64,000 bases of DNA from Parcubacteria group bacterium Gr01-1014_8 (GCA_007376385.1 VMGC01000003.1:1-64000), one strand, 5' to 3'. Positions 41,909 through 64,000 are shown, counted from the stretch's first letter. Translations and numbers: made by a program. Notes: a model not told the origin generated them from the letters alone.

Positions 41909-41909
41909 C

Positions 41910-42030: not shown

Positions 42031-42059
42031 CAAAAGAGTCCCATAGTGGGACTCTTTTG
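42031..42059 (-). terminator. intrinsic terminator downstream of tRNA-Asp
   Basis: 12 bp perfect stem CAAAAGAGTCCCA/TGGGACTCTTTTG, followed on the minus strand by TTTTGCTATGCAAAA. Confidence 0.55.
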
Positions 42060-42067
42060 TCTCGCTG

Positions 42068-42586: not shown

Positions 42587-42630
42587 GTTTCGCCAGAATA
42601 GCATTTTTGACAGGCGACTCAACTATTTTG

Positions 42631-42782: not shown

Positions 42783-42790
42783 ATCACAGC

Positions 42791-42817
42791 AAAAAATCCG
42801 CGCGAGGCGGATTTTTT
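42791..42817. terminator. bidirectional intrinsic terminator hairpin between tRNA-fMet and the tRNA-like element
   Basis: AAAAAATCCGCgcgaGCGGATTTTTT, perfect 11 bp stem flanked by A and T runs. Confidence 0.5.
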
Positions 42818-42827
42818 GCTGTACTTG

Positions 42828-42942: not shown

Positions 42943-43042
42943 TTTATTTGCGACGTAGAGCGAGTGAAATGCAAAAGAGCACTTTTGCATTTCCGAGCCG
43001 AGGAGCAAACACAGGTTCAATACCTCGCAGCTTTGCTGCGAG
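42942..43042 (+). repeat. intergenic repeat family copy C with downstream hairpin
   Basis: gcgagtgaaatgcaaaagagcacttttgcatttccgagccgaggagcaaacacaggttcaatacc, then CTCGCAGCtttgGCTGCGAG. Confidence 0.6.
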
Positions 43043-43786: not shown

Positions 43787-43795
43787 TCGCCTATT

Positions 43796-45211: not shown

Positions 45212-45213
45212 AC

Positions 45214-47534
<2,321 letters not shown>

Positions 47535-47586
47535 TTACAAGGTAGAGCCTGTCGATGCCAGTAGCCAATGTAGGGTCGAAAAACGC

Positions 47587-47997
47587 CTAGTACCGCAATT
47601 CGACGGAACGCTGAAGCGCACGAGCACTCGTCCCAATAGAAGCACAGCTAGTGCTGTATCCGTCCGAGTGAATAGTGGTCCGAGGATAAAAGTTTCGTTT
47701 CGTTACAACTACTCTCACGCAGCGCCCGTTTGGTTCGAATTCGTACGAGAACGTCACCGTCCACGGAGCATACGATGCCTGGCTATAGTACGAGCCTTCG
47801 GCGTAGTAAGAAGACTGGCTGTAGTACGTGCTTTGCGAATAGTATGTTGATTGACTGTAGTATGTACCTTGAGAATAGTACGTCCCCTGCGAATAGTATC
47901 CGCCTTCACCATACGCAGCGTATGCAAAAAAGGGCACCGCGCTCAACAAAAAGACAAGAGCAAACAGAAACTTCTTCTTTTGTTGCGATACGTTCAT
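47587..47997 (-). CDS. secreted tyrosine-rich tandem-repeat protein (YYSQxT hexapeptide repeats)
   Basis: Signal peptide, then (G/S)TYYSQ repeated about 7 times, encoded by an 18 nt tandem DNA repeat. Confidence 0.55.
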   Translation of the reverse strand: MNVSQQKKKFLFALVFLLSAVPFFAYAAYGEGGYYSQGTYYSQGTYYSQSTYYSQSTYYSQSSYYAEGSYYSQASYAPWTVTFSYEFEPNGRCVRVVVTKRNFYPRTTIHSDGYSTSCASIGTSARALQRSVELRY

Positions 47998-48002
47998 GTA
48001 CT

Positions 48003-48314
48003 CTATTGAGCTTGGGTCGTTACGTTAACGGTTTGACCATCGCACGTTATTTGCTCAGGCGGAGATGACGTTGAAAATAGCTCATGACGAATATCCCAAT
48101 AGAGCGCACATTCTGCCCCAGTGTCTGCAGCGTAAAATGCGAATTGCGAATCTCTTCCTATGGAAGAAAGAATGACGCTTTTACGCGCGATGGTTACGAT
48201 AGCCAGTCCCAGCGCGAGTGAAAGCGAGGCGATAAGAGCCGAAAGAAGGAGTGTAAAACCGCGGCTTTTTTCCTTTGGAAATTTCATATCAATATCATTA
48301 CAACGCGCTGCCAT
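48003..48314 (-). CDS. pilin-like / pseudopilin protein
   Basis: KSRGFTLLLSALIASLSLALGLAIV N-terminus is pilin-like but lacks Glu at +5. Confidence 0.5.
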   Translation of the reverse strand: MAARCNDIDMKFPKEKSRGFTLLLSALIASLSLALGLAIVTIARKSVILSSIGRDSQFAFYAADTGAECALYWDIRHELFSTSSPPEQITCDGQTVNVTTQAQ

Positions 48315-49068
48315 CTTCTACCCAGCGGTATAAGTTCTCGGAGATGGTGAACGAACGCGGTTGAAACGAACCGCTACGCCACTGTACAGTCACGCTGACC
48401 CTTATTTCGTCTGGTGCATTTATGAACTTGACATGCGCGGTACGCGTAAAGCGCGTTGCAGTCCATCCCGACAGGCCTCGGCCATACCCATACAAATTAC
48501 CATCTGTCTCTAGCGGTGGACATGTGCCGGATGTACATACGCTTGCGTCCATGTAATTGTCGCGTGTATCTATAACGAACGGGGCATCATTCGGGATGCC
48601 TTCAAGCAAGTCTACAGCTGTGCCCAAAGCGTTCTCTAGTATGTGCCCGTCACGTACGGATCGAACTGATTCAATCGCCTCTTGTGCCAGATGGAACGCC
48701 GTTATCTGATCTCTCGCATAGAAAGCAGTGGCCAGACTTTGCGCGACGAGTCCCATCGGAACCACGATAGCTATTGTGAGGAGCGAGATCGCTACCAACG
48801 TCTCAATGAGCGAGAACCCCGAACTGTCAGATGCTCTTTGCGGATCACGCAATAAAAAAGCCCGCCCCGCCGTTCCTCGCCTCATAGAGGCGAGGTATTC
48901 CGCGGGACGGGACCAGGCTTTTGTTTTGGAATAGGAATCGACCACCGTCGATTCGAGTTTAGTGTGCATCCCCGCAGCAAGCTGCGGGATATTGCACGCC
49001 AATAAAAGACCGGACATCGGTTTTCCTTGACTTGAAGCGCGTGAACCTGGACGCAGATGCTTTATCAT
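48298..49068 (-). CDS. type IV minor pilin (prepilin N-terminal domain)
   Basis: GFSLIETLVAISLLTIAIV class III signal with E+5. Confidence 0.7.
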   Translation of the reverse strand: MIKHLRPGSRASSQGKPMSGLLLACNIPQLAAGMHTKLESTVVDSYSKTKAWSRPAEYLASMRRGTAGRAFLLRDPQRASDSSGFSLIETLVAISLLTIAIVVPMGLVAQSLATAFYARDQITAFHLAQEAIESVRSVRDGHILENALGTAVDLLEGIPNDAPFVIDTRDNYMDASVCTSGTCPPLETDGNLYGYGRGLSGWTATRFTRTAHVKFINAPDEIRVSVTVQWRSGSFQPRSFTISENLYRWVEDGSAL

Positions 49069-49703
49069 AGGTCTAGTATTCGCTGCGCCGCCGTCGCTTG
49101 TATGGAATAGGTAGTCTTTGTTTTTACTTTTGCTGCACCAGCAATGCCTTTCACGACAATAACGACTTTAGGCTGAACAGTATCACCCGGCGTAGTGCCC
49201 ACTACGTAAAACGCCATCTCTTCAATACTGACCTCTTCTGCCGTTATGGGAAATTCTGTTCCCCCTCCATTTTCAGATTTATATATTCGTTTCGTTTCTG
49301 CATCATATCGGTACCTCCACTGGTCATTAACATCACTTGAACTTCCGCCGAAAGGCTCGAACGCGAAGGACGTACCGGGAGTATCCGCGCAATCCTGCGG
49401 GATTGTCTGCGTCCCGCTGCCGCAATGATAGGTACTGCCCATGCGGATAGCGCGCACCATGCCATCAAGGGCTATGTTCAAATTATTCATCACTGATTCG
49501 AGCGCCCGAGCTTTTCTGTTGGCATCAATGAGAGAAACGAGCGCCCCGAGACCAACGAGCATAACGATCGCAAAGAGCCCCACTGAGACGACCATTTCGA
49601 CAAGCGAAAATCCGGGGGAGTGTCCTCCATGGAATACAGAACGCGAGGAATGAGGGTGAATCCCCTTTTTTTCCGTACTCCTTGCCGTTGATCTTGGTTC
49701 CAT
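49065..49703 (-). CDS. type IV minor pilin
   Basis: PGFSLVEMVVSVGLFAIVML prepilin motif. Confidence 0.7.
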   Translation of the reverse strand: MEPRSTARSTEKKGIHPHSSRSVFHGGHSPGFSLVEMVVSVGLFAIVMLVGLGALVSLIDANRKARALESVMNNLNIALDGMVRAIRMGSTYHCGSGTQTIPQDCADTPGTSFAFEPFGGSSSDVNDQWRYRYDAETKRIYKSENGGGTEFPITAEEVSIEEMAFYVVGTTPGDTVQPKVVIVVKGIAGAAKVKTKTTYSIQATAAQRILDL

Positions 49704-49704
49704 A

Positions 49705-50385
49705 CTATCGTACTGAGATCTGCCCTGTCGCTTCGACGATGATCGACTTCGTATCTCCTCGAGGTGAACGAACGACTATCCGCGCGTTCTGCTGACAATT
49801 CGCGAGTGAGAGAAGACACGAGAGATCATTCGCACTTATAAGCGCATCCGGTTCCGGTCGTCTAAAGAGAATATCCAACTTCGAGACCGCCGTACATGTG
49901 CTTGCGTCCGCACCTGCGGGTACGCAAAGCCTGCCGACCGAAAATCCACCTGCAAGCGTCGATGCTTGCTGCAGCTCGCACGTCGCTGAAGAACTGGAAT
50001 CAGGACAATCATACAAACCATTCTCGATGACCGCGTCCGCAAAGATCTGGTAGGACGTAGGGTCAGAACTCGCGAAATGCATTCCATAGGATGCCCCGAA
50101 ATTACCGGCGCCGAAGCGCTGCACGGCGATGCCATAGACTTGCGTCTGGCTTACGGAGAGGGCGACATCATACGTCAAATTTTCCAACGTTATTGCCGCC
50201 CCGAATTTTGAATAATTTGCCAGGAGAATTGATGAAATGATCACAAAGATTGCCGTAACAACCATGAGCTCGATCAGCGTGTATCCTCCATCAGAAGATG
50301 CTTCCGCCGCGTCAGAACCTTTTTTTGAACGCGTTCGTTCACTTCCCCGCACAACGCTTCCTACGGAAGAAAAGGAATGGATATG
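49705..50385 (-). CDS. type IV minor pilin (start uncertain)
   Basis: GYTLIELMVVTAIFVIISSILLA prepilin motif. The annotated 365 aa ORF overlaps pilD in another frame, so a later GTG/ATG start is assumed. Confidence 0.6.
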   Translation of the reverse strand, partial: HIHSFSSVGSVVRGSERTRSKKGSDAAEASSDGGYTLIELMVVTAIFVIISSILLANYSKFGAAITLENLTYDVALSVSQTQVYGIAVQRFGAGNFGASYGMHFASSDPTSYQIFADAVIENGLYDCPDSSSSATCELQQASTLAGGFSVGRLCVPAGADASTCTAVSKLDILFRRPEPDALISANDLSCLLSLANCQQNARIVVRSPRGDTKSIIVEATGQISVR

Positions 50386-51170
50386 CCGTATACGTTCAAT
50401 TGCCATACTAGTATGCAGCTTGCGATGAGAAAGGGACCAAAGGGAACCTCGCTCTCCATTGTAAAGCGCGGAGCGCCCCTGCTCAATGGAGTTATCCCAA
50501 TCTTCTCCGCATACGCAAGAAGCACAGGAAGCGGGAGTAAGATACAGACACTTACGACGGCACCGATAATGAACGCACATAGTATGGCAAAAGGACCCGC
50601 GATGGGTCCTAAAAGAAAACCAATAGTAAATGCAAGTTTTACGTCGCCGAGTCCCATCCATTTGCCTCTCGACACAAGCCACAGCGAAAAAAGCGGCGTT
50701 GCAGTGGCAAGAGCGCCAAGAACTACGTATGTAATTTGGGACGCCTCTTCCATCGCAAGGAGGCCATACACAAATGCGACTACGCCCGCTGCATAGCTCC
50801 ACACATCAGGAATAACTGTGTGGTATATATCGTACACAGTGATCGCTACAAAGAGTGCCATGATGAGCACTCCTAAGATCTTTAATTCGATAGGAAGCGG
50901 GGAAAGACCCACCAGAACAAAAAGTAGCGCCGTTCCTATTTCAACCAGTGGATATTGCAAAGATATGCGATTCTTGCAATAGCGACATGCGCCCCCTAAG
51001 TAGACAAAAGAAAACACGGGTACGAGATCGACAACCTTGAGTACCGTCCGACACGAAGGACATGCGCTTCTTCCCATCAAATCCCGCTTCCCTTCTCGCA
51101 GGATAAGCACATTCACAAAACTCCCAATGATCAACCCAGATGCGCCAAAGAGGAATGCTTCGAGGACCAC
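50361..51170 (-). CDS. pilD: prepilin peptidase (A24 family)
   Basis: N-terminal CxxC...CxxC zinc motif, 6 to 8 TM helices, catalytic Asp context. Confidence 0.85.
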   Translation of the reverse strand: MVLEAFLFGASGLIIGSFVNVLILREGKRDLMGRSACPSCRTVLKVVDLVPVFSFVYLGGACRYCKNRISLQYPLVEIGTALLFVLVGLSPLPIELKILGVLIMALFVAITVYDIYHTVIPDVWSYAAGVVAFVYGLLAMEEASQITYVVLGALATATPLFSLWLVSRGKWMGLGDVKLAFTIGFLLGPIAGPFAILCAFIIGAVVSVCILLPLPVLLAYAEKIGITPLSRGAPRFTMESEVPFGPFLIASCILVWQLNVYGISIPFLP

Positions 51171-51246
51171 AGGGAAAAGAATAGCACAACGCCCCCTCCT
51201 TGGGGGCGTTGTGTATCCGCTCTTTTAGGCGGTAGAAGACTTTCCC

Positions 51247-51756
51247 CTACGGCTTCACGCAATACGACGGATCATCACATGTGGTAGCGCCACCTGCGAG
51301 CCCCGCCCAAAGTCCGTCAACGTCACCGAGTGGAACCGCGCTAGCGCCTCCTTCGATAACTGATTTAATGACGTAGCTAGAGCACGGCACTGCCGTACAT
51401 GCTGCACCTGCCCCGTCGGCAGAAGCATACGAGTACACGTACGAACCACTGTTCGTCGGGTCACTTGATATCTGTGAGATGAACTGCTCTGTGACAAGAG
51501 CCCCAAGTCCGCTGGCAGCACCCATGTCTGTTGTGCCAGACACACCACCCGCAACAACTGCTGGGTATGATTGGTGCGCATCGTAGTACAACTCAAGCGC
51601 TAACTGCATTTGCTTCATGTCCGCGATGCGGCGTGCATCACGTCCCTTCTTTCGCGCGCTGTTCAAGGACGCAAGAACGACGGACGAAAGAATACCGATG
51701 ATGGCGATAACCACCAATAGTTCAATGAGAGTGAAGCCTCTCGATGTTCGATTCAT
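51247..51756 (-). CDS. pilA: type IV major pilin (PilA-like)
   Basis: RGFTLIELLVVIAIIGILSSVVLASL. Start is probably the internal Met before the leader. Confidence 0.8.
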   Translation of the reverse strand: MNRTSRGFTLIELLVVIAIIGILSSVVLASLNSARKKGRDARRIADMKQMQLALELYYDAHQSYPAVVAGGVSGTTDMGAASGLGALVTEQFISQISSDPTNSGSYVYSYASADGAGAACTAVPCSSYVIKSVIEGGASAVPLGDVDGLWAGLAGGATTCDDPSYCVKP

Positions 51757-51791
51757 AAAATAAGATTTATTACTAATGTTACTAATAATGG

Positions 51792-52265
51792 CTAATTGCA
51801 ACCGGATCGAACGCTTCCGTTTGCATCAACGTATACCATTCCAGGGGTCGTCCGGGGCCCCGTTCCGACTTCCAGATATGCACACGCTTGCCAATTCTGG
51901 GTAGTCGCCCCCCCTGTTGAGAGATCCGCCTGCGTACCGATGGCATAATCGCATGCACTGCCCGATCCTTCAGTGCAGGCGGTGGTGGAGCCGGAGGGAT
52001 CTTTATATGCCGACAGATCTGGCGTCGTACACGTGCTGACTCGAGCTGCCCCTGATGTGCAACCTACAAAGGTCGTAGCAGCTCCACCCGTATCAGCAAT
52101 GGCAACTGCGTTGCCTATTTGGCGAAGATCCTCTACGCGGCGCGTATCGCGGCCTTTTTTACGAGCATTATTCAAGGACGCCAAAATGACCGAGGACAAG
52201 AGCCCAATAACCGCAATAACCACCAATAGTTCAATGAGAGTGAAGCCTCTGTTTTTTTCTTGCAT
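51792..52265 (-). CDS. pilA: type IV major pilin paralog (PilA-like)
   Basis: MQEKNRGFTLIELLVVIAVIGLLSSVILASL. Confidence 0.8.
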   Translation of the reverse strand: MQEKNRGFTLIELLVVIAVIGLLSSVILASLNNARKKGRDTRRVEDLRQIGNAVAIADTGGAATTFVGCTSGAARVSTCTTPDLSAYKDPSGSTTACTEGSGSACDYAIGTQADLSTGGATTQNWQACAYLEVGTGPRTTPGMVYVDANGSVRSGCN

Positions 52266-52365: not shown

Positions 52366-53574
52366 CTAGAGACCCGACGCAATGTTGTAGATAGGAACAA
52401 GAACAGCCGCGAGCAGTATTGCAACCCCAAGGGCGAGCCCTACGATCATCACCGGCTCGATAAGAGAAACAAGAGTATCTATTGCATTATTGACTTCCCG
52501 CCGATAGTAACGCGACATCGTGTCCAGAATATTGCCCATATTGCCGGTCTCCTCTCCTATCTTCATCATCGCGACGATGATACCCGGAACTTCCGGATGT
52601 TTGCGGAATGCTTCGGATACGGGGAGTCCCGCCTTCACATCGGTAGCAACTTCTGTTAATACTTTTTCATAGGTGACATCGCCCACAACGCTTGCAGTGA
52701 TCTCAAGCCCGCGCAGCATTTGAATGCCACTTTTTAACATTGTTGCGAGGTTGTCGGACATGCGGGAGAGGTAAAGCTTTCGATAAATGACGCCAATGAT
52801 CGGCATCTGCAATCTTGCTCGCGAGAGAAAAAGCATGCCGTTCTCGCTCTTGCCATATCGGAATATGAAAACGCCGCTAATAACAAGAAGGACCCCCAAG
52901 AGTAATATGTAGTTTGATAGAAATGTGCTTATGCCTATGACTATTCTTGTGTAAATAGGCACGGCCTGTCCTACCTCCTCAAGCATCAGCGCGAGACGCG
53001 GTATGACAAGAGTGAGCATAAGGATCATAACAACCACGAACGTAAGCAGAATGAACGCTGGATAGACGAGCGCATTTTTCGCTTTTTGCGTGATCTCATA
53101 GTTTCTGTCGAGGTACTCCGCAAGAAATGCGAACGTCTCGTCTAATTTACCCGTTTCCTCGCCGGCGCGAACCATGTTCACATAGAACGGCGAGAACACA
53201 TCTGGCTGACGCGAAAGAGCAGCCGCTATAGAGCTTCCACTTTGAATGTCATTCGCGACTTCAGTGAGTTTTTCGGCAAGCTTCGGTGTTCTCGCCTCAG
53301 CTGCTAGCAATCTGAATGCGCGAAGCGCAGATACCTGTGCTTCGAAAAGCGTGGTTATCTGGCGCGACACCATCACAAGATCGGAACTCTTTATCCTGTC
53401 AAATATCGCAACACGCGAAGTGAACGATTGCTTGATCTCAACCGGTTCTATGGAAGAGATGATCAAGCCTCTTCTCTGTATTGCGGTGATCGCAAGGTCT
53501 ATGTTCACCGCATCAATGGTGCCAGTGCGCTCTGTCCCGGTTTGATCAAGTGCTTTGTAAGAAAAAATTGCCAT
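52366..53574 (-). CDS. pilC: type IV pilus platform protein PilC (GspF family)
   Basis: Two T2SSF repeats, 3 TM helices, 402 aa. Confidence 0.9.
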   Translation of the reverse strand: MAIFSYKALDQTGTERTGTIDAVNIDLAITAIQRRGLIISSIEPVEIKQSFTSRVAIFDRIKSSDLVMVSRQITTLFEAQVSALRAFRLLAAEARTPKLAEKLTEVANDIQSGSSIAAALSRQPDVFSPFYVNMVRAGEETGKLDETFAFLAEYLDRNYEITQKAKNALVYPAFILLTFVVVMILMLTLVIPRLALMLEEVGQAVPIYTRIVIGISTFLSNYILLLGVLLVISGVFIFRYGKSENGMLFLSRARLQMPIIGVIYRKLYLSRMSDNLATMLKSGIQMLRGLEITASVVGDVTYEKVLTEVATDVKAGLPVSEAFRKHPEVPGIIVAMMKIGEETGNMGNILDTMSRYYRREVNNAIDTLVSLIEPVMIVGLALGVAILLAAVLVPIYNIASGL

Positions 53575-53595: not shown

Positions 53596-54657
53596 CTACA
53601 ACAACTTTTGCAACACATTCGGGTTTAGAGAATACTGGTACGCGCTTTCCACCGATATCTCCCCCTTCCCTACAAGTTCAGCGAGGGAACGGTTCATGTC
53701 TATCATTCCTTCAGTCGAGGATGTTTCAATGACCGTATTTATCTCATGAGTTCTCTTTTCGCGAATGAGGTTCGCGACCGCTTTATTATTTATAAGAAGT
53801 TCGTATGCCGGGATCAATCCGCCTGATATGCGCGGGATGAGACGTTGTGAGAAGATCCCGGCGAGAGACGCCGCAAGCTGAAGGCGTATTTGGTCTTGCT
53901 GGTTCGCAGGGAAAGTGTCAATGATACGGTCGATGGTCTGCGCGGCATTGTTCGTATGAAGCGTCGAAAAGACCAGATGACCGGTTTCAGCCGCTGTAAC
54001 AGCAGCGGCCATCGTCTCTGGTCCTCGCATTTCCCCTACCAAGAGAACGTCAACGTCCTCTCGGAACGCAGATAGAAGCGCGGAAGCGAAGTCTTTTGTG
54101 TCAATGCCAACCTCTCTCTGATCTATCAATGATTGTTTCGGAGTGTGCACATATTCTATCGGGTCTTCCACCGTGACGATATGTTCCATACGCTCCGTAT
54201 TGATGAGTTCGATCAAAGACGCAAGCGTCGTCGTCTTTCCTTGCCCCACCGGGCCTACCACCAAAAAGAATCCTTGTGATTTTCGCGCGAACGACTCCAA
54301 CACGTCGGGGAGATTCAATTCTTGCACGGAACGTATCGTCTTAGGGATAAGCCTCAGAGCGATGCCGACGGCACCGCGCTGAAAGAACGCATTACCTCTG
54401 AAACGGGTACCGTCCTCAGTCTGATACGCAAAATCTACTTCCTTGGTATCAAAGAATCGTTTCTGTTGTTCCGGTGTCAGGAGCGCTTTCGCGAACCCAA
54501 GCGTATCTTCCGGAGTTAGAACTGGTTCTTTCAACATTGGCGAGAGCGAGCCCGCTACGCGTATGGTGGGATGTGCTTCTGTTGAAAAATGAAGGTCAGA
54601 TGCACCTTCATGTATGACCACATTAATATACTTTGCCAGTGTTTGAGGATAATCCAT
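53596..54657 (-). CDS. pilT: type IV pilus retraction ATPase PilT
   Basis: GPVGQGKTTT Walker A, Asp box, His box, 353 aa (no N-terminal GspE domain). Confidence 0.85.
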   Translation of the reverse strand: MDYPQTLAKYINVVIHEGASDLHFSTEAHPTIRVAGSLSPMLKEPVLTPEDTLGFAKALLTPEQQKRFFDTKEVDFAYQTEDGTRFRGNAFFQRGAVGIALRLIPKTIRSVQELNLPDVLESFARKSQGFFLVVGPVGQGKTTTLASLIELINTERMEHIVTVEDPIEYVHTPKQSLIDQREVGIDTKDFASALLSAFREDVDVLLVGEMRGPETMAAAVTAAETGHLVFSTLHTNNAAQTIDRIIDTFPANQQDQIRLQLAASLAGIFSQRLIPRISGGLIPAYELLINNKAVANLIREKRTHEINTVIETSSTEGMIDMNRSLAELVGKGEISVESAYQYSLNPNVLQKLL

Positions 54658-54801
54658 ATGAAATCCCTAAGAGGAAAGCGAGTGTGTTGCTCCCTTCTCC
54701 CGACTCATGCACGCTACACACGACATTGTAACCTATTTTTTGTACGCACATGAGGAACTGTGTGAAGAAGTGGGATTTCTGTTTATACCTCTAGCGAGTC
54801 C

Positions 54802-54904
54802 GGGTGCCGGATGCGGTTTGTAGGGACCCCGCAGCCGACAGACGAGGACTCGAGGATTTTTCTAGAAAGAAAAATCCGTGCCCGGAAAACCGCATCCGGC
54901 ACCC
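54802..54904. repeat. 103 bp nested inverted-repeat element between the REC-domain gene and pilT
   Basis: Outer 18 bp perfect inverted repeat GGGTGCCGGATGCGGTTT...AAACCGCATCCGGCACCC. Inner 10 bp palindrome GGATTTTTCTagaAAGAAAAATCC. Confidence 0.6.
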
Positions 54905-54913
54905 TGCGAGCGT

Positions 54914-55360
54914 CTATTTCTTTCCTATGGCCTCCATCGTCATCGTGACCACCTCCGAAGGTATCATGCTTGCCTTAACGACATACTTATCGACACCAAG
55001 CTTTTCCGCCTGCACTTTGTCACCATCATTGCTCTGATTCGTGAGGGCTATTGTTTTTGCACCCTCCGCTAATTTCTCTTCTTTGACTCTACTCAAGAAA
55101 CTAAATCCATCGTCCCCTGGCATGACAATATCGAAAAGAATAGCCGCAGGCTTAAGACCTCCTCGAAGCACCGTGAGAGCGTCCGCTGTAGACTGGCATG
55201 CCTCAACCGCAAATCCCTTCTGCATGAACTTCATACTGTACATATCAAGAAGGAAGTGGTCGTCATCGACTAGCAGGATGGTTCCATTCTGCCCCGGGGA
55301 GGACGCGGGCATAGATGGCTTTTGCGGCCCACTCGCGCTATTTTGTTTTTCTTCAGCCAT
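54914..55360 (-). CDS. CheY-like response regulator receiver (stand-alone REC) in the pilus locus
   Basis: ILLVDDDHFLLDM...DIVMPGDDGF, phospho-acceptor Asp and conserved Lys context. Confidence 0.8.
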   Translation of the reverse strand: MAEEKQNSASGPQKPSMPASSPGQNGTILLVDDDHFLLDMYSMKFMQKGFAVEACQSTADALTVLRGGLKPAAILFDIVMPGDDGFSFLSRVKEEKLAEGAKTIALTNQSNDGDKVQAEKLGVDKYVVKASMIPSEVVTMTMEAIGKK

Positions 55361-55377: not shown

Positions 55378-57123
55378 TTAAACATCTGTAGTCTCTGTTT
55401 CAGTTTTTGCTGCAACCTCCTTCTCGGTTTCATCTGCCAAAAGCAAGGTACTCAAGGAATCAATCTCAGAATAAGGAACCATTTTTGCGAACGACTTCAG
55501 CATAGCATCCTCTCTCATCGTGAGCATTCCCTGCGCGCGAGACACCCGCCACAATTCCGACTCGACGGGATTCTTTAGGACAATATGCTCGATGTCCGAC
55601 CCCATTTCCATGACCTCAAAGACTGCCATTCTTCCCTTTAATCCTGTCATGCAGCCGGGTGATTTCTCCGGTTCAAATATTGTGTCCGGTACCTTGAATC
55701 GGTATTTTTCCGGAAGACTTGAAAGCTGCTCTTCGATGTTCTTTCTGATAGATGGCGTCATGGGGACTTCCTTCCCTGTCCCTGCACAGAGTGTGCGCAC
55801 AAGCCGCTGGGCAACCGAAGCGATGAGAACAGGCGGAATAAGGTAGGGTTCCACGCCCATATCGATGAGCCTCGGAATCGTCCCAACTGCATCGTTCGTG
55901 TGGATGGTCGAGAGCACCAAGTGACCCGTAAGCGCCGCCTGCACGGCAAGTTTTGCCGTTTCTGCATCGCGGATCTCACCCACCATGATGATATCGGGGT
56001 CTTGTCGGAGTGTCGTACGAAGGCCAGTCGCGAAGGTGTATCCTATCTCAGGCCTGACTTGTGATTGCGTAATACCTTCCACGTAATACTCGATCGGATC
56101 TTCGAGTGAAAGCACGTTCTTATGTTCCCTGTCCAGCTCTGATAGCATTGAATACAACGTCGTCGATTTACCGCTTCCCGTGGGACCCGAGATGAGTACC
56201 AAGCCGTGCGGCTGTTTTATCGCGTTGCGTAACAATTTCAGATTTCTCTCCGAGAGTCCGATTGAATCGAGGGGAATAAATCCCTTATCACGGTCAAGGA
56301 TCCGAACAACAACCTTCTCACCATTGGATGAAGGAAATGTGGAAACACGAAAGTCTATCTGCCTTTGCTCAATAGAAGCAGAAAAACGTCCATCCTGTGG
56401 TTTTCGTTGTTCATCGAGCCGTATTGAGGCCAAAACCTTGATACGTGCGACAAGCGCTCGATGAGTATTTGCCGGCAGAATAACACTCGTATGAAGATCT
56501 CCATCCACTCGGTAACGAACGCGAACTCCCGTCGGTGTCGGTTCGATGTGGATGTCGGACGCATTACCATCAATGGCATACCTAAGGATAGTGGACACTA
56601 TCTTTATCGTCGGCGCATCCTCCTGAATGACTTGTGTCGGCCCCTCTTTCGGCTTTGCGTTCCCAAGGTCCAATAGCGCTTGATCCAATTCATCCGTCGG
56701 CGGCCGCGTGTCTGATTCAGTTTGCAAGTCAGACACCGCTTGGTCCACGTCACCACCGAGAACGCGATACATTGCAATGACCTTCTTGAGATCCTCTTCT
56801 GATATTCGGAACACTTTGAAAGGAACGCCGGTCTTTCGTGCGATGAAGTTCAACGCGTCGATGCCTTCGATATCATCCGGATCAACCATGCCGACTTCCA
56901 AGACTCCTTCTTCAAGAGAAACGGGGGCAAAACGATAGTGCTCCGCCGCTTCTTGCGGAATGAACTTCAACACTTCGTACGGGATTTTGGTGTCTCCGAG
57001 AGCCTTTGAAGGAATATCAACAGATATATCCCCCGCGGCTCCTGGGGAAAAGTTGCTCGGTACCGGATTTGTTACTATCGGCTGGATTATGGTCATACTA
57101 CGTTCATCAACGTCACGCTGCAC
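55378..57123 (-). CDS. pilB: type IV pilus assembly ATPase PilB (GspE family)
   Basis: N-terminal GSPII_E_N domain, Walker A GPTGSGKSTT, tetracysteine-like region. Confidence 0.9.
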   Translation of the reverse strand: MQRDVDERSMTIIQPIVTNPVPSNFSPGAAGDISVDIPSKALGDTKIPYEVLKFIPQEAAEHYRFAPVSLEEGVLEVGMVDPDDIEGIDALNFIARKTGVPFKVFRISEEDLKKVIAMYRVLGGDVDQAVSDLQTESDTRPPTDELDQALLDLGNAKPKEGPTQVIQEDAPTIKIVSTILRYAIDGNASDIHIEPTPTGVRVRYRVDGDLHTSVILPANTHRALVARIKVLASIRLDEQRKPQDGRFSASIEQRQIDFRVSTFPSSNGEKVVVRILDRDKGFIPLDSIGLSERNLKLLRNAIKQPHGLVLISGPTGSGKSTTLYSMLSELDREHKNVLSLEDPIEYYVEGITQSQVRPEIGYTFATGLRTTLRQDPDIIMVGEIRDAETAKLAVQAALTGHLVLSTIHTNDAVGTIPRLIDMGVEPYLIPPVLIASVAQRLVRTLCAGTGKEVPMTPSIRKNIEEQLSSLPEKYRFKVPDTIFEPEKSPGCMTGLKGRMAVFEVMEMGSDIEHIVLKNPVESELWRVSRAQGMLTMREDAMLKSFAKMVPYSEIDSLSTLLLADETEKEVAAKTETETTDV

Positions 57124-57222: not shown

Positions 57223-57585
57223 CTATCGGCGAGGCGACGTGCTTGTGGCCTGCTTTCCCTGTCCTGCATTGAGAGGAGCGAACGGATTCAAGCGTCCGAC
57301 TGGTTCAGGTATGATTTGACTCCCAAAATCCTGCAGCGTTTGGAAGGCAGGGTCTGAAAAAATGCTTCCCTCCAGAGCAACTGCACGTAGTTGAAGGAGT
57401 GTGGCAACGAGGTCTTTGTCAGACGCGGTGCCGGCCGTTGTAAAGTCTTCTGTTACCAACAGATCCGGCGAGCTCGAATCACCGCTGAGTCCAAACCACG
57501 CTCCCACGCCCACTATTATGGCGAGGCCGCCGATGACAATTTTGTTTCTAACTATCATTTCAAACATATTCATTATTTTAGCCAA
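57223..57585 (-). CDS. hypothetical pilus-associated membrane protein (PilP-like position)
   Basis: 120 aa with an N-terminal TM helix. Located between pilO and pilB. Confidence 0.3.
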   Translation of the reverse strand: MAKIMNMFEMIVRNKIVIGGLAIIVGVGAWFGLSGDSSSPDLLVTEDFTTAGTASDKDLVATLLQLRAVALEGSIFSDPAFQTLQDFGSQIIPEPVGRLNPFAPLNAGQGKQATSTSPRR

Positions 57586-58136
57586 TACGTCCTCACCGTT
57601 ACGTCGTAGCGATACGTCGGATTGACCTGGGTCTGCTGCCCCTCAGCATTCATCGAGAGTGACACGAGATCAACGATGCGCAAACTTTTCTCCAATTCTT
57701 CCATGAATTGCACAAAGCTTTCGTACGAGCCGGAAGTCGTGAATTTGAATGTTAGGGAGTCAAAGGCGCGATTGCCGCCGCCTATCACGCCGCTCACGGT
57801 TTTTGTAGCTTCTGCTGGCGTGCCAATGACGACATTCTGGAGTCCGAGCCCGAATCTGCTTGCGATATTGTCGAGGTCCAGAACGAGTCGCACATTGTCA
57901 ACGTGATCCGGCAGCAATTTATGCAAGCGTTCTATGTCTTGCGGATCAAACGCATTGTAACGGGAGAGGAGAGATTGTTTTAATCGCTGCAATTCTCCCG
58001 CCTTGTCCAAGGCCTGGTTATATTCAGTTATTTGCGCTTGCAGGACACGGGTTTGATCGTACGTCGGTTTCGTATAAAAAAAGAAGATCGCAACGGACAT
58101 TGCAAGTCCCGCAATAGCTATAATGGTACGTGACAT
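57573..58136 (-). CDS. pilO: PilO-like pilus assembly protein
   Basis: N-terminal TM, coiled coil, C-terminal ferredoxin-like region. Gene order pilM-N-O. Confidence 0.5.
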   Translation of the reverse strand: MSRTIIAIAGLAMSVAIFFFYTKPTYDQTRVLQAQITEYNQALDKAGELQRLKQSLLSRYNAFDPQDIERLHKLLPDHVDNVRLVLDLDNIASRFGLGLQNVVIGTPAEATKTVSGVIGGGNRAFDSLTFKFTTSGSYESFVQFMEELEKSLRIVDLVSLSMNAEGQQTQVNPTYRYDVTVRTYWLK

Positions 58137-58141
58137 ATATC

Positions 58142-58819
58142 TTATTGCGCGTCGGTACTCTCCGGTAGTCCTTCAGGAGGAAGCGGGAGAGCGCCGGTTG
58201 GTTGTTGTTGCTCTTGCACCTCCGGAGCTGCTACTGCGCCAAATTGGCCATACCGCAAGGCTGAAGGGTTTACGAGTGCCCCAAGGTCAAAGTGTACGCC
58301 GTCTATTTGCCTATTGATGTTAGAAAATATGGGACTTGCGATGGCGCCGCTTTTGCTGAGGTAATCCGCCTGCAAGGCTATCGAGTTTACACTCATGGCG
58401 ATACCTCGCATTTTTACGTTCATGTTATGCGCATCGACTGCTTGAAAATCAAGATTGGTGAACGCAACTGTCTGAAGCGTCAGTTGCTCAAGCAAATGGA
58501 AAAAGATGGAAGGTGCGATGTGTTCAGAGAGCACCTGGTCGGCTGCACTCATGCGGTCGTCCAAACGCGTTAATTCCTGGATGAGCGCCGGTTCAAACGC
58601 AGCCTTTGCTCTCTCGAGTTGTTCAAGCTTGCTTGAAGTGGAGGTCTTCAAAAATTGTTCATAGAGAAACACTCCGACCGCCAAAGCGACAGACGCCACG
58701 AGCAGTACTATCGCGATGAGGACAAAAAGGTCGGAGAGACCAGGGCCGCGACTATACGATGGCGCAGCCGGAATGGTCGCGTCCCGAGGAATGAATGAAG
58801 ATTTAATGCCGGTTTCCAT
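58142..58819 (-). CDS. pilN: PilN-like pilus assembly protein
   Basis: Single TM then coiled-coil. Immediately downstream of pilM. Confidence 0.55.
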   Translation of the reverse strand: METGIKSSFIPRDATIPAAPSYSRGPGLSDLFVLIAIVLLVASVALAVGVFLYEQFLKTSTSSKLEQLERAKAAFEPALIQELTRLDDRMSAADQVLSEHIAPSIFFHLLEQLTLQTVAFTNLDFQAVDAHNMNVKMRGIAMSVNSIALQADYLSKSGAIASPIFSNINRQIDGVHFDLGALVNPSALRYGQFGAVAAPEVQEQQQPTGALPLPPEGLPESTDAQ

Positions 58820-58828
58820 AAAAACTGT

Positions 58829-59980
58829 TCAGCGGTGCTGCAACTCACGAAGCGCTAACCCCACCGCAACTGCAAACCCTGGACCGATCTCGCGAAGAAC
58901 CTTGTCGAGAAACGCAGGCGTCTCAGTTCTCGCGAACGGATTCGCTATCTCGACTTCTGTTTGCAATAGTTCGTTCGCGTGAGCGGCAAGGCCGGGAAGA
59001 GAAGCTCCGCCACCAGTAAGTATCGCGCGCGATACATTTTTGTTGTATCGCTTCCCGTAGCTCAATAGTACCCGATTCGCTTCCGAAAACACTCGTTCAA
59101 GTGTTGATAACAGAGCAACCTTTATTTTGTCGTTCTCATCAGCTGAAAATGCCGAGGCTTCCACAAGGCCATGTTCCCTTTTTATCCTCTCCGCCTTTTC
59201 GAAATCCCAGTTCAAGGAACGCGCAAGGTTCTCCGTCATATGCTGCCCCCCGTGTGTTACGAGATGTGTTACCCGCACGATGCCTTTCTCCACCACATAC
59301 ATCTTCGTTGTCGCAGCGCCTAGGTCTATGACAAGAACCGGAGCCATTCCATGGCCAAGAGATGAGCGTATCGCACTGAAGATCTCTATTTCATAGAATT
59401 TTATGGAGAGCCCCGTTTCAGATGCTATGGTCTGATATGCACGTACGGTCTCATTGTGTATCGCAACCAAGAGCACCTCCTGGCCCTTTGATTGCATCGG
59501 TGTTTTTTCGGTTATGCGATCAAATGCGGCTTCCTCAGCCTCATCTTGCGGTATAACGAACCAATCGAGCATAACTTCTGAAGCCGGCAACGGAATATAT
59601 TTGCGAGCCTCGATAGGGATCATTCGTTTTAACTGGTCCGAATCAACTTTTGGCATATCAAGCACCGAGACAAGGCTTGACGAGAATGGAATTGAAAGGC
59701 CCCCAGCGCGTGCTGTCACGTTGGCTTCGCGAATAAGATCGAGAATGGCTTCGGCGGTCTTTTCTGGCGTTAATTTGACGGCCTTCCCAATAGAAACGTC
59801 CCCATACGGTCCGAGGGCTATCTCGCCATATGTCTCAAGGATCGCAGCGCCATGGGCAGGCCGAAGTTGTACTATTTTTGCCGATGAGGCGCCAATATCA
59901 ATACCAAGTACACTTCCTGTTCCCGACTTGAATCCGAGTGAGGCACCTAGTTGCGAGAAGGATGGAAGTGAAAAAGCCAT
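58829..59980 (-). CDS. pilM: type IV pilus assembly protein PilM (actin-like ATPase fold)
   Basis: LGIDIGASSAKIVQL phosphate-1 motif, 383 aa. Confidence 0.8.
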   Translation of the reverse strand: MAFSLPSFSQLGASLGFKSGTGSVLGIDIGASSAKIVQLRPAHGAAILETYGEIALGPYGDVSIGKAVKLTPEKTAEAILDLIREANVTARAGGLSIPFSSSLVSVLDMPKVDSDQLKRMIPIEARKYIPLPASEVMLDWFVIPQDEAEEAAFDRITEKTPMQSKGQEVLLVAIHNETVRAYQTIASETGLSIKFYEIEIFSAIRSSLGHGMAPVLVIDLGAATTKMYVVEKGIVRVTHLVTHGGQHMTENLARSLNWDFEKAERIKREHGLVEASAFSADENDKIKVALLSTLERVFSEANRVLLSYGKRYNKNVSRAILTGGGASLPGLAAHANELLQTEVEIANPFARTETPAFLDKVLREIGPGFAVAVGLALRELQHR

Positions 59981-60086: not shown

Positions 60087-60416
60087 CTATTCAATACCAT
60101 CTATCTTAGCAGCAAGAATGAAGTCGTTTTCTGATAGTCCATGCATCGAATGTGTCGAGAGTTCCACCCCAACCCCACCCCACTTCAAGACAATGTCCGG
60201 ATGATGACCTTCGGCTTCTGCAATTTCGCCAATTTTGTTCACAAACGCGAGTGCTTCCTTAAAATCCTTCAGCTTAAAGGAGCGGGACATCTTTTTTGCG
60301 TCATCCGACAGCCGCCACTCTGGAGTTTGTTTCCTCAGTGTCTCTGCCTCATCTCGCGTCAGCGGTACAGCGCCCACCTCGCATGGTATGCATTTTTTCT
60401 GCAGCAACGTCATGAC
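60087..60416 (-). CDS. pterin-4a-carbinolamine dehydratase (PCD/DCoH)
   Basis: EGHHPDIVL motif [EH]-x-H-H-P. Start taken at the internal Met, since the longer ORF would overlap comFC. Confidence 0.7.
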   Translation of the reverse strand, partial: VMTLLQKKCIPCEVGAVPLTRDEAETLRKQTPEWRLSDDAKKMSRSFKLKDFKEALAFVNKIGEIAEAEGHHPDIVLKWGGVGVELSTHSMHGLSENDFILAAKIDGIE

Positions 60417-60427
60417 ACAATAGTAGC

Positions 60428-61072
60428 ATGATGCGTTTTTTTCGAGCCATATTTGATGCGATTCTCCCGCAAAAAGCACGGGTCGCACGAACACAGACCT
60501 ACACATTGAAAGATTTGGAGCTTTCGCCTACGACTCACGAAGCATACGGAGTACAGATAACAACGCTGATGTCATATCGAACGAAAGCAGTTGAAGATCT
60601 CATCCGCGCTTTGAAATATGACGGGGCAAAACACGCATCACATGCCCTCGCAGAAGCACTTGGAGAATATCTGCAAGAAGAGATCGCCCACATCAAGCTG
60701 TTTTCCTCAAAATCAGTGCTTCTCGTTCCTATATCCCTTCACAGTGAACGTCTTCGAGAACGCGGATTTAATCAGATAGAAGTTGTGCTCAATGCATTGC
60801 CAGAAGAATTCAAGAACGGGAAGCTCACAACTCTCTCGCCTCGTACGCTCACGCGCATTCGCAACACCCCACAACAAACAAGGCTTTCAAGAAATGAACG
60901 TCTGAAGAACGTAGAAGGTGCGTTCGCCGTTTCGGACGAAAAGACGCTTCAAGATACGCATGTCATTCTCATTGATGATGTAACAACTACCGGAGCAACG
61001 CTTTCGAGTGCGGCACAAACACTCAAGAAAACAGGAGTATCATTTTCAATGATTGCTCTCGCACGAGCATAA
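60428..61072 (+). CDS. comFC: ComF family phosphoribosyltransferase-domain protein
   Basis: C-terminal PRTase motif VILIDDVTTTGATL. Confidence 0.75.
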   Translation: MMRFFRAIFDAILPQKARVARTQTYTLKDLELSPTTHEAYGVQITTLMSYRTKAVEDLIRALKYDGAKHASHALAEALGEYLQEEIAHIKLFSSKSVLLVPISLHSERLRERGFNQIEVVLNALPEEFKNGKLTTLSPRTLTRIRNTPQQTRLSRNERLKNVEGAFAVSDEKTLQDTHVILIDDVTTTGATLSSAAQTLKKTGVSFSMIALARA

Positions 61073-61183
61073 ACTGCGGGCTTGGCGGGATTCAGACTTT
61101 GTAAGCGAGGCATCACAAGGGTATCTTAGCGAGTTTCTTGAGAGGTTATTGAGGTGTCTGGATCGCCCCAACTGTACGGCGTG

Positions 61184-61774
61184 TTATTCGAGTGACACAC
61201 CTATATCGCCATCAAACTGGCCCTGCTTTACGTTGATACTGTTTGCCTTGATGAAATTTCTGTAGACAAGTTTGCCAGCAATATCTAACTTATGGAATAT
61301 CTCCATATAATTCCAGAATATGCCTTTGCTATATTTCGAATACTGTTTTTGATGAAGAGTCTCATTTGCTGCTTTATCTTTTTTAATGTCGCCCCATAAA
61401 GTCGTAATCGCATTTTGAACATCGCTTGCAAAAGATGGCACGTAGATAAGAAGTCCCTGATTAAAGAAACCTAAATGTTCGCTCTGTGCAGACGGGTCCG
61501 CAGTAGGAACAACTGCGCCCTTTGCGACATAGCTATGCGATACTCCGTTTCGAAACAACTCATAAATCAATTCTGCAATTGGATGATATTGAGGCGGCAT
61601 GTACACACTCTTGCAAAAGGCAACAAAGTTATTCTTGGTAGTACCGGGCCCGGTTTTTCCTGTTATGAAACTCCCACACATTTCCATGGCGGTAAATACC
61701 GCACTTGCCCACAGGAGGGTGCCTTTTTCATTTGGGCCGATAGAGTTTACTAAGTCCTCGAAAAAGATTGCCAT
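61184..61774 (-). CDS. hypothetical protein with an RNxxxH motif (possible HEPN-like)
   Basis: 196 aa with ELFRNGVSHSY (Rx4H), no other recognisable domain. Lies between comFC and tRNA-Ser. Confidence 0.4.
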   Translation of the reverse strand: MAIFFEDLVNSIGPNEKGTLLWASAVFTAMEMCGSFITGKTGPGTTKNNFVAFCKSVYMPPQYHPIAELIYELFRNGVSHSYVAKGAVVPTADPSAQSEHLGFFNQGLLIYVPSFASDVQNAITTLWGDIKKDKAANETLHQKQYSKYSKGIFWNYMEIFHKLDIAGKLVYRNFIKANSINVKQGQFDGDIGVSLE

Positions 61775-61992
61775 ATTGAAAATTGTAGCTCCGACTGTGC
61801 TCTTCGGGTACTCGGGTCAGTCCGATAAAAAAGTCTTCGGGCGGTGAGATATTAGTCTTTGCTCGAACCCACTTCGCACGCGCGGAGCGCGTGGTGGCTT
61901 GAAACTGAAGCGTACGCCCCGATTCCGCTGACTCTCGCCTCTGCCGCGCCGCTTTGCGGCGCGGCTCTGTCCGAACTCGAAGTTTCTATCTG

Positions 61993-62081
61993 CGGAGAGG
62001 GAGGGATTCGAACCCTCGAGACAGTTTTACCCGCCTAACACGTTAGCACCGTGCCGCCTTCGACCACTCGGCCACCTCTCC
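61993..62081 (-). tRNA. tRNA-Ser(GCU)
   Basis: Acceptor GGAGAGG/CCTCTCC, 3 bp D-stem, anticodon loop GTGCTAA, long variable arm, T-arm GAGGG-TTCGAAT-CCCTC. Confidence 0.85.
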
Positions 62082-62270
62082 CTCGATTCGCTTACGCGAA
62101 TCATATCGGAAGGAGGCCTCGCCCTTCGGGCTCCCTAAAGCCTGCTCGGCACTTGCCTCGCATTGGCTTTTTCCGCATTCGCGGAATCGGATGAAATAGA
62201 CGCCAGGTCATATTTCATGGCCACCTCTCCAACCGCACTACCCTATCATAGAACAATAGGGTTTTCTAAA

Positions 62271-62624
62271 TCACAAAACTTTGTGTATCAACCAAGAGAG
62301 AAGCGACAGAACGATGGCACCCAATACCGCACTCCAGAAACCTGCGATAGAAAATCCTGGCACTATCCACGTCATTGCATAAAAAAGAAATGCGTTCAAA
62401 ACAAAAGCAAACAGTCCGAATGTGATGAGAGTGATCGGGAATGTAAGGATCTGCAGAACGGGACGAATAACGGTTACAATGACTGACCATACGAGTGCGA
62501 CTAAAAGAACTGTCGTCCATCCGCCTGCAATTGTTATGCCTGGGACAATGTTGACGGTTAATAGCACCGCCGCGACGTTCCCTGCATATTTCAAGAGAAA
62601 GTGCATGCGTTCATGATACGACAT
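62271..62624 (-). CDS. YvlD/phage-holin-family-4-like four-helix membrane protein
   Basis: 117 aa with 4 TM helices, pattern similar to the Phage_holin_4_2/DUF360 family. Confidence 0.55.
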   Translation of the reverse strand: MSYHERMHFLLKYAGNVAAVLLTVNIVPGITIAGGWTTVLLVALVWSVIVTVIRPVLQILTFPITLITFGLFAFVLNAFLFYAMTWIVPGFSIAGFWSAVLGAIVLSLLSWLIHKVL

Positions 62625-62985
62625 AAAGCACTCCCAGGCAAAACACCCGCCAGCTTTCGGCTGATGGGTGTCTTTTAGTTCCGAATTTCAGCGCTACTCC
62701 TGTTCTTCCTCTGCCATGCCTTCCAACAGGTCTTCATCCAGCTCTTCACTTTCCTCGGCTGGTTCATTCCCCTCATCATCGTTAGACATCATCATAGATA
62801 TGCAACGCTATCCTGATAACGAGCATTCGCTCGATATCGTGTCTTCGCGGGGATGACAATGAAAGCAAGCTTTCGCTTCGCATCCTCGCTAGCCACGATA
62901 ACACCGCTATCGTACCGATACCTACCCCGCGTGCAAGCGATAGGGGTGTGAATAACTTTTGGGGAGCATATAATTCCTCTACCTC

Positions 62986-64000
62986 ATGAACGCCTCCGAT
63001 ACCATCACCGCGCATTTTCGCCTCACTAAGCCACAAATTGCGGCTCTCCGACGACTTGGACTAATAACTATTGCTGATATCTTGCGCCATTTTCCTGCAC
63101 GCTATGAGAGAGCCGGCGAATCATCAGACATCTCCCATTTGGTAGCGGGACAAAAAGTAACCCTCTATGGAGAGTTATCGAAACTTGAAGCAAAGCGATT
63201 ATGGAAAAGTCGCCGCACAGCAACAGAAGGTATCTTCGAAGACGCGACCGGAAAAGTGAAAGTGCTCTGGTTCAATCAACCTTACATCGCAAAAATGGCG
63301 CCGCAAATGCAGCTTGTTAAATTAACAGGTTCCGTTGCCGGCAAAAACAAACCATATATCACTAATCCTGAAATTGAGACGTTGCCACCAGGCTTCATAC
63401 CTCCGGTGCAAAGTGAAAAATTGTTCAACGTGGCACGATCTGAACCAACACCAACCTCCATTTTCCCCGTCTATCCGGAAACGCGCGGTATTACGTCTCG
63501 TTGGTTCTTTCACGCCTTGGAACGCATTTTTGGATCGAACACACATATCACGCTCGAAGATCCTCTCCCAAGTAATGTACGAGAAAGATACCACCTACCC
63601 GATCTTTCTACATCGCTTATGTGGGCGCATAAGCCGGAAAAGGAATCGCATGCAGAAGTCGCGCGAAAACGTTTTGCGTTCGAAGAAATTTTTGTGCTCA
63701 ACGTCATGCGTGCGAAAGAACGCGCAGAAAATGACGCACTGCCTTCATTTCAAATAGATAATGCAAAAGAACATGCAGTGCATTTTCTCGAAAGCGTGTC
63801 GTTCAAAGCGACGCGCGCGCAGCATGTAGCGATAGAAGACATCCTCGCTGATCTTAAGAAAAATCACCCGATGGCACGGCTCCTCGAAGGTGATGTTGGA
63901 AGCGGCAAAACCCTTGTCGCCGCAGCGACTGCATATGCGATCGTAAATTCAAGACCTCGAGGACAGACCTTCGGCACGCTCCAGGTCGGTTATATGGCGC
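62986..64000 (+). CDS. recG: ATP-dependent DNA helicase RecG (5' part, continues beyond the window)
   Basis: N-terminal wedge/OB domain then helicase motif I GDVGSGKT. No stop codon before the window end. Confidence 0.8.
   Translation, partial: MNASDTITAHFRLTKPQIAALRRLGLITIADILRHFPARYERAGESSDISHLVAGQKVTLYGELSKLEAKRLWKSRRTATEGIFEDATGKVKVLWFNQPYIAKMAPQMQLVKLTGSVAGKNKPYITNPEIETLPPGFIPPVQSEKLFNVARSEPTPTSIFPVYPETRGITSRWFFHALERIFGSNTHITLEDPLPSNVRERYHLPDLSTSLMWAHKPEKESHAEVARKRFAFEEIFVLNVMRAKERAENDALPSFQIDNAKEHAVHFLESVSFKATRAQHVAIEDILADLKKNHPMARLLEGDVGSGKTLVAAATAYAIVNSRPRGQTFGTLQVGYMA

Follow-up and report, generated by a model that had tools for sequence, protein, structure and literature searches.

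The type IV pilus gene cluster

The window (the whole 64-kb stretch of DNA that was analysed) comes from an uncultured Parcubacteria (CPR) host represented by a MAG. The PilT protein encoded in it is identical to a protein of 'Parcubacteria group bacterium Gr01-1014_8'; among its homologues, the nearest belong to Parcubacteria/Kaiserbacteria MAGs. Pfam assignment of the type IV pilus genes gave the order pilM-N-O-x-pilB-REC, a 256-bp spacer, then pilT-pilC-pilins, with all genes on the minus strand:

58829-59980, minus strand: pilM
58142-58819, minus strand: ORF at the pilN position, with no significant Pfam family
57573-58136, minus strand: pilO
57223-57585, minus strand: small ORF
55378-57123, minus strand: pilB
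54914-55360, minus strand: REC, stand-alone response-regulator receiver, 148 aa
54658-54913: REC-pilT spacer, 256 bp
53596-54657, minus strand: pilT, 353 aa, T2SSE ATPase
52366-53574, minus strand: pilC
51792-52265 and 51247-51801, minus strand: two pilins
about 50361-51077, minus strand: pilD (coordinates mapped from the L001 gene call)
48298-50802, minus strand: three ORFs with an N-terminal methylation motif, probable minor pilins

Just downstream of the methylation-motif ORFs is ORF 47587-47997, which has no Pfam match and contains an imperfect 18/36-nt tandem repeat (2.8-4.3 copies, window 47779-47898).

Genes are densely packed in this genome: intergenic DNA makes up 4.8 kb of the 64 kb, and the REC-pilT spacer is among the largest intergenic regions. 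A 103-bp inverted-repeat element lies in this spacer, with 9 nt between it and the REC stop codon (54914-54916) and 144 nt between it and the pilT ATG (54657-54655); the first-pass annotation had correctly placed it between these two genes. The same annotation had considered the adjacent REC protein as a binding partner of the element in case it had output domains. Pfam identified a Response_reg domain at residues 28-130 and neither an output nor a DNA-binding domain. REC, being a receiver domain only, cannot be the DNA-binding partner, and an EMSA with REC is not apt.

Structure of the palindromic element

The element and its surroundings are made up as follows:

54906-54910: GCGAG, right copy of a 5-nt direct repeat in the flanks, separated from the arm by 1 nt
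54887-54904: right arm, 18 nt, AAACCGCATCCGGCACCC on the plus strand; forms the 5' side of the stem in mRNA sense
54820-54886: core between the arms, 67 nt
54854-54877: inner A/T-rich hairpin, 10 bp, formed by GGATTTTTCT (54854-54863), loop AGAA and AGAAAAATCC (54868-54877)
54829-54840: degenerate inner copy of the right arm, CCGCAGCCGACA versus CCGCATCCGGCA (10/12)
54802-54819: left arm, 18 nt, GGGTGCCGGATGCGGTTT on the plus strand; forms the 3' side of the stem in mRNA sense (minus strand)
54794-54798: GCGAG, left copy of the flanking direct repeat, 3 nt outside the arm; possible target-site duplication
54658-54801, minus strand: remainder of the spacer, between the element and pilT

The inverted repeat is real. 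As the first-pass annotation had described, the repeat search found two 18-nt arms that are 100% complementary and enclose 67 nt. The inner 10-bp palindrome of that description is present as well, with a loop of 4 nt (AGAA) in place of 3 nt and a second arm of 10 rather than 11 nt. In the predicted fold the inner hairpin and a weaker second hairpin form a three-way junction closed by the 18-bp stem, with an energy of -62.6 kcal/mol (z = -4.4) for the minus (mRNA-sense) strand and -62.8 kcal/mol (z = -5.1) for the plus strand. The degenerate inner copy of the right arm is able to pair with positions 54805-54816 of the left arm, giving a short alternative REP-like hairpin.

The claim that an 18-bp perfect inverted repeat is beyond chance in 64 kb held up in simulation. 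The maximum length of a perfect inverted repeat (within 300 nt) was 10-15 nt, and never 18, in 150 sequences of 64 kb generated by first-order Markov models of the window. When the window was searched with the 18-mer, allowing up to three mismatches, only the two arm sites were found (0.04 expected). Chance is thus excluded, as no simulated sequence reached 18 nt and the 18-mer is confined to two sites. An assembler artefact is excluded too, since the 291 nt spanning the element are 100% identical in the ENA ERZ27284378 and Logan SRR8863434 assemblies.

The GC content of the element (59%) is above that of the window (49%) and of the remaining spacer (46%), and neither arm resembles the adjoining sequence (blastn with word size 7, in the window). 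For the core, searches of the window and of viral contig, phage and plasmid databases found no similarity to other sequence. Four open reading frames cross the element. The GCGAG repeat in its flanks is possibly a 5-bp target duplication and could also be due to chance: a 5-mer common to both 10-nt flanks is expected at 3.6% of positions, and the two copies are offset from the arms by 3 and 1 nt.

Orthologous loci in related genomes

Orthologous loci were reached by exact-protein look-up of PilT homologues; the identities below are those of each PilT to the PilT of the window:

Window: PilT 100%, REC-pilT spacer 256 bp
L005 (closest relative): PilT 94%, REC-pilT spacer 97 bp
L006/L144 (sister genome GCA_964373725.1): PilT 90%, REC-pilT spacer 137 bp
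Contig of P0004 (gene table only): PilT 88%, REC-pilT spacer 12 bp
L133: PilT 87%, REC-pilT spacer 12 bp
L134/L135: PilT 87%, REC-pilT spacer 15 bp
L139/L140: PilT 87%, REC-pilT spacer 1 bp
L136-L138: PilT 86%, REC-pilT spacer 7 bp

In these seven relatives, with PilT proteins 86-94% identical to that of the window, the spacer ranges from 1 to 137 bp. By blastn the element is absent at all six related loci with readable DNA; the seventh has a 12-bp spacer, as taken from the gene table. Two of the roles suggested by the first-pass annotation, an attenuator and an operator for pilus regulation, do not survive this comparison as conserved functions: an element missing from 6/6 readable relatives is not a conserved attenuator or operator, nor a conserved regulator of pilus expression, and the operator is further contradicted by a REC protein with no DNA-binding domain. 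The same annotation had stated that its reading would be refuted if orthologous loci lacked the element with no effect on expression; the lack is what was found in the six readable relatives, and it goes against a conserved regulatory role.

Spacers of 1-15 bp in five relatives point to a tight pilB-REC-pilT-pilC operon as the ancestral state. By the same comparison, a spacer opened only in the subclade formed by the window, L005 and L006, and the palindrome appears only in the genome of the window. REC ends at the same place in the window and in L005, and the two spacers have in common the part from TTCACAC (54766-54760) through GGTTACAAT to the pilT ATG (compared by eye). GGTTACAAT includes a -10-like hexamer, TACAAT, at 54730-54725, and we infer that the shared part holds the pilT promoter and leader. 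What the window has in addition to L005 is 9 nt after the stop codon, the 103-nt element and about 35 nt beyond it (by eye). Beyond the element itself, about 44 nt of its surroundings are missing from L005 too, so that L005 offers no clean empty site; nor does L005 have any hairpin in its spacer despite the same promoter-like region. Spacer content differs among the window, L005 and L006; the spacer is thus fast-evolving in this subclade.

Palindromic elements in the pilus operons of relatives

In the sister genome, the 18-kb contig CAYJVW010000015.1 of GCA_964373725.1 (L144) has hairpin or inverted-repeat elements of 100-140 bp in almost every spacer of the pilus operon, a load far denser than that of the window's genome. 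Palindromic elements were located on this contig at the following positions:

1743-1779, 2939-3060, 4367-4501, 6575-6878, 7277-7418
8496-8598, 10953-11013, 11747-11882, 13223-13259, 14427-14512

Some are inverted arrays of 7-nt tandem repeats (AAGTATC/GATACTT, TAGCTTC/GAAGCTA and CTATACG/CGTATAG). The AAGTATC/GATACTT family has two homologous copies, in the pilM-pilN and REC-pilT spacers, and further inverted arrays occur in the pilT-pilC, pilin-pilD and pre-ligA spacers. The REC-pilT palindrome of this genome (L006/L144) has 37-nt arms with 89% complementarity, 68 nt apart (-46 kcal/mol, z = -7). Another family is defined by its terminal repeats, the ACCCGCACACCAAMTT ends of 16-22 nt; its copies, at least four, have only these ends in common and differ in their cores. 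They sit in the pilO-next, pilB-REC and pilD-3' regions, show apparent flanking direct repeats of 4-6 nt (read by eye) and often abut the ATG of the next gene.

A long hairpin between pilT and pilC was found at 3586-3656 of L134 (ENA ERZ27293400 contig) and is the same in L135. It consists of GAAGGCA heptamers, with perfect arms of 15 nt extending to about 24 bp (-53 kcal/mol, z = -4.6), and the pilT-pilC spacer that holds it is 113 bp long versus about 10-20 bp in others.

The element of the window is like these palindromes in anatomy and unrelated to them in sequence. Homology to the inverted-repeat elements of L144 was considered and rejected; the arms containing CCGCA are alike only partly and in the wrong orientation. 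REPIN-like miniature palindromes, with conserved ends and free cores, thus multiply in this clade and insert between pilus genes. The multi-copy families of L144 support a mobile palindrome as the reading of our element by analogy, not by homology.

Search for further copies and for a cognate transposase

The first-pass annotation had proposed a search of the genome for copies with the same 18-bp terminal repeats. No second copy was found in the window (18-mer with three mismatches; blastn with word size 7), and none in 9.5 kb upstream and 7.7 kb downstream of it in the same genome, which brings the DNA searched to about 81 kb in all. The loci of relatives contained no copy (blastn); viral contigs, phages and plasmids gave chance single-arm matches or nothing. 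A six-frame peptide search with the four open frames of the element, concatenated, was meant to catch spurious ORF calls on other copies and had no match in 5.8 billion proteins. In the GTDB genomes (596 Gb) a single 18-mer, too short to be specific in a database of this size, matched more than 119 loci; among the matches listed all were single-arm chance matches, largely in Micromonospora contigs, with a maximum extent of 23 nt and with no row from the source genome. The two-arm pattern had one match in the JGI metagenomes, an unrelated high-GC actinobacterial hairpin adjoining a 407-aa ORF that resembles glgC by eye. The element is therefore a singleton across everything searched, a negative that is weak given the limited power of the searches. 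Occurrence in multiple copies is what defines MITEs and REPINs, and these searches found a single copy.

Two transposase genes of the same genome lie near the window, one of the Y1_Tnp and one of the rve family; neither has arms in common with the element. The Y1 transposase gene (217 aa, PF01797, 29.8 bits) occupies 3996-4649 of L141 (ENA contig k139_616945), and the locus as a whole (L141 3876-4670) precedes the window start by about 6 kb. On its two sides the gene has a perfect 25-nt palindrome, ATGACCGACATCGTATGTCGGTCAT, and an inverted copy of it, and two degenerate copies lie upstream. RAYT/REP units and IS200-like elements are laid out in this way; here the arrangement occurs in a CPR genome. 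ATGACCGACATCGTATGTCGGTCAT is absent from the window and unrelated to the element. The Y1 gene was rejected as the cognate RAYT, because its ATGACCGACAT-type palindromes do not match the arms of the element. The rve-family transposase is at 8470-9510 of L141.

Comparison with known mobile palindromes

REPINs, described in Pseudomonas fluorescens SBW25, are doublets of REP sequences that form hairpins and are mobilised by RAYT transposases (PMC3116915, PMC3337134). In a REPIN two conserved 16-nt inverted ends and a variable spacer make up a long hairpin (PMC3116915). Our element likewise has short inverted ends (18 nt) around a spacer, and it shares with REPINs a unit size of about 70-110 bp, an extragenic location and a predicted single long hairpin in ssDNA or mRNA. 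It differs from them in copy number (one copy here, tens to hundreds in REPINs), in its arm, which is not itself palindromic as a REP is, and in the transposase: a RAYT gene is flanked by the same REP, whereas the only Y1 gene found here has a different palindrome. The 12-nt core of the arm, TGCCGGATGCGG, resembles what we take to be the E. coli REP core, a curiosity. REP palindromes carry a GTAG or CGTC tag at one end (PMC3733652); the element has a GTAG at 54820-54823, adjoining the left arm on its inner side and not at the outer end.

The CREE/nemis elements of Neisseria are 104-157 bp long (104-108 or 153-157) and have inverted repeats. They are co-transcribed, their mRNA hairpins are bound or cleaved by RNase III and the expression of neighbouring genes is altered. 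They have a 26-bp repeat, a conserved core, a target-sequence duplication and an IHF site, are present more than 100 times in a genome and occur only in Neisseria (all PMC2649163). With its 103 bp our element falls in the same size class; it also has terminal inverted repeats, is inserted between operon genes, and an mRNA hairpin with RNase III is the mode of action proposed for it below. In contrast to CREE, it has no sequence similarity to them, no evidence of multiple copies and no promoter-generating ends.

Among bacterial MITEs are ERIC, RUP and the Rickettsia palindromic elements. The element resembles MITEs in being short, non-coding and intergenic, with perfect 18-nt terminal inverted repeats, a composition unlike that of its flanks and presence or absence between close relatives; it differs in that neither a family of copies nor a cognate IS sharing its ends was found and in that its target-site duplication is ambiguous (for a review of bacterial MITEs, see PMC10969869).

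Origin of the element

With moderate confidence, we read the element as a palindromic insertion of the MITE/REPIN kind, non-coding and specific to this lineage. The first-pass annotation had offered an attenuator, a protein-binding operator and a MITE-like insertion, and of the three only the insertion fits the evidence. Its terminal repeats, its small size and the absence of coding capacity speak for it; a second copy and an unambiguous target-site duplication were not found. Given the copy number, the want of a transposase with the same ends and of a clean target duplication, the element is classed as MITE/REPIN-like only and is filed as a 'MITE/REPIN-like singleton', not as a member of a family. 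The probable course of events is that a spacer opened in this subclade between the pilB-REC and pilT-pilC parts of the cluster and that the element arrived in it by transposition or a similar insertion, with GCGAG as the possible 5-bp target duplication.

The hairpin could instead be a functional terminator or attenuator working without a U tract, which ends the pilB-REC transcript before the pilT promoter and is maintained by selection on structure, not by mobility. We consider this possible, if unlikely. The stem is perfect and very stable and, as in an intrinsic terminator, lies just past a stop codon on the transcribed strand; this is the place expected of such a signal, 9 nt beyond REC and upstream of the TACAAT site shared with L005. 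Relatives, moreover, independently bear unrelated long hairpins (L006 between REC and pilT, L134 between pilT and pilC). However, the 'loop' has 67 nt and its own substructure, and the transcribed strand has no U-rich tail. A canonical Rho-independent terminator is in fact rejected on this ground: the stem is followed by GGACUCGCUAGAGG, not by a U tract, and a terminator scan gave no site. The genome does employ canonical terminators. One, after the second pilin gene of the same operon, reads ACACAACGCCCCC-AAGGA-GGGGGCGTTGTG followed by CTATTCTTTTCCC, with 12 bp in the stem, 5 nt in the loop and a tail rich in U. Next to tRNA genes there are two further short-loop hairpins flanked by A/T runs. 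The real terminators of this genome thus have stems of 12-16 bp, loops of 3-5 nt and U-rich tails. Also against a terminator, L005 has the same promoter-like region and no hairpin, and REC and pilT are separated by just 1-15 bp in five relatives, so that no terminator function of this sort is needed in the clade. A known structured RNA was searched for separately: with Rfam 15, neither a search of 1 kb that allowed E values up to 10 nor scans of the whole window gave a match on the element.

Another explanation, in our judgement rather unlikely, is that the palindrome was made in place by replication template switching or fold-back and involves neither mobility nor function. Perfect arms would fit a recent templated event, the degenerate inner copy of the right arm is suggestive of local duplication, and the fast evolution of the subclade spacer and the singleton status in all searches agree with an origin on the spot. 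Against it stand a GC content higher than that of the flanks, arms unlike the adjoining sequence and the flanking 5-nt direct repeat, as well as the multi-copy elements of similar anatomy in the sister genome.

The hairpins of the relatives raise a broader idea, which we regard as improbable: that this clade (Kaiserbacteria-like Parcubacteria) repeatedly acquires, and perhaps selects, unrelated intercistronic hairpins in the pilus operon as 'punctuation'. The instances in the clade have stems of 18-37 bp around cores of 37-100 nt. If the idea were true, the hairpins would act as signals for RNA processing or stability and thereby determine the stoichiometry of motor, platform and pilin proteins, in organisms having very few classical regulators.

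Phase-variation switches have the general layout of inverted repeats around a short segment upstream of a surface-appendage gene. The element matches this layout, so a recombinase might flip the 67-bp core between the 18-bp repeats and vary the expression of pilT-pilC. We hold this to be very improbable. The core is very short for inversion and has no promoter-like site inside, and the inverted repeats of relatives are unrelated in sequence. No recombinase gene was found in the pilus cluster or in the ORFs scanned at window 43097-51189 and 60141-63757, and the element has one orientation in all three assemblies, with the Logan contig running straight through it; this single orientation and the absence of a recombinase from the scanned genes argue against an actively inverting switch. 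Hardly credible at all is an operator through which a DNA-binding regulator, the adjacent REC included, controls pilT: symmetry of the sequence and a site upstream of pilT are all that favours it, whereas the centre-to-centre distance of the half-sites, 85 bp, is unlike that of known dimeric operators, REC has no DNA-binding domain and the element is absent from all relatives with readable DNA.

Possible effects on pilus gene expression

The element would be co-transcribed as the 3' end or an intercistronic part of the pilB-REC message, because there is no terminator between them. In the transcript, a three-way hairpin of high stability (about -60 kcal/mol) is predicted to begin 9 nt past the REC stop codon. 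Its 18-bp stem may block 3'-exonucleases or serve as a target of RNase III; the action of RNase III on hairpins is documented for Correia elements (PMC2649163), and an action of this kind has been proposed for REPs (PMC3733652). The hairpin would then insulate pilB-REC from pilT-pilC, the latter probably being driven by their own promoter-like site (TACAAT) within the 144 nt downstream. Any effect on RNA is most likely a by-product of the insertion, and we are considerably less confident of a measurable effect of the RNA hairpin than of the insertion itself.

Taken alone the element is of little importance: being a singleton insertion that is missing from most relatives, it cannot belong to the core of pilus regulation. 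It does mark the place where a normally tight pilB-REC-pilT-pilC operon is split in one lineage. The split operon provides a natural test of whether an intercistronic hairpin affects how the extension and retraction motors are balanced. Seen beside the sister-genome contig with its many hairpins, the element hints that streamlined CPR genomes may carry active families of miniature palindromes. Miniature palindromic elements in CPR are a topic with almost no literature; our search for work on palindromic or MITE elements in these bacteria, including a load of the L144 type, found nothing relevant.

Other features of the window

A dispersed intergenic repeat of about 75-85 nt is present in three copies with 80-88% identity:

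6360-6442, minus strand: dispersed repeat
24290-24372, plus strand: dispersed repeat
42960-43018, plus strand: dispersed repeat

The repeat has a small hairpin and a conserved stretch, TTTCATTTCCGAGCCGAGGAGCCAACACAGGGTCGAATACC. Rfam gave no match to the repeat, which may represent either a small RNA family or some other kind of repeat element.

The upstream contig k139_616945 extends to about position 4556 of the window, which lacks the final 60 nt of that contig. Near the contig end there is a 42-nt repeat (4419-4460 and 28937-28978, 79%). The discrepancy (window about 4419-4560) may be an assembly break or an assembly difference.

At window 41910-41927 and 42628-42643 the 3' ends of tRNA-Asp and tRNA-Met are repeated exactly over 16-18 nt, 157 and 197 nt away from the genes themselves. 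Two intergenic regions here, 41909-42066 and 42587-42826, are unusually structured (-67.5 kcal/mol, z -5.5; and -107.5 kcal/mol in 240 nt, z -6.8). The copies and structured regions could be remnants of att sites, pseudo-tRNAs or an unrecognised RNA; the ORF beside a tRNA-end copy (40667-41908) is a glutamate dehydrogenase, not an integrase. A third structured intergenic region, 62082-62270, is next to tRNA-Ser (-70.9 kcal/mol, z -6.3), with only weak sub-threshold matches in Rfam.

At window 13209-13345 (plus strand) there is a sub-threshold match to the SAM-I riboswitch (RF00162), with 34.8 bits against a gathering score of 44.4 and E = 4.5e-4. The match spans the full length of the model and lies in the 203-nt spacer upstream of ORF 13406-14458.
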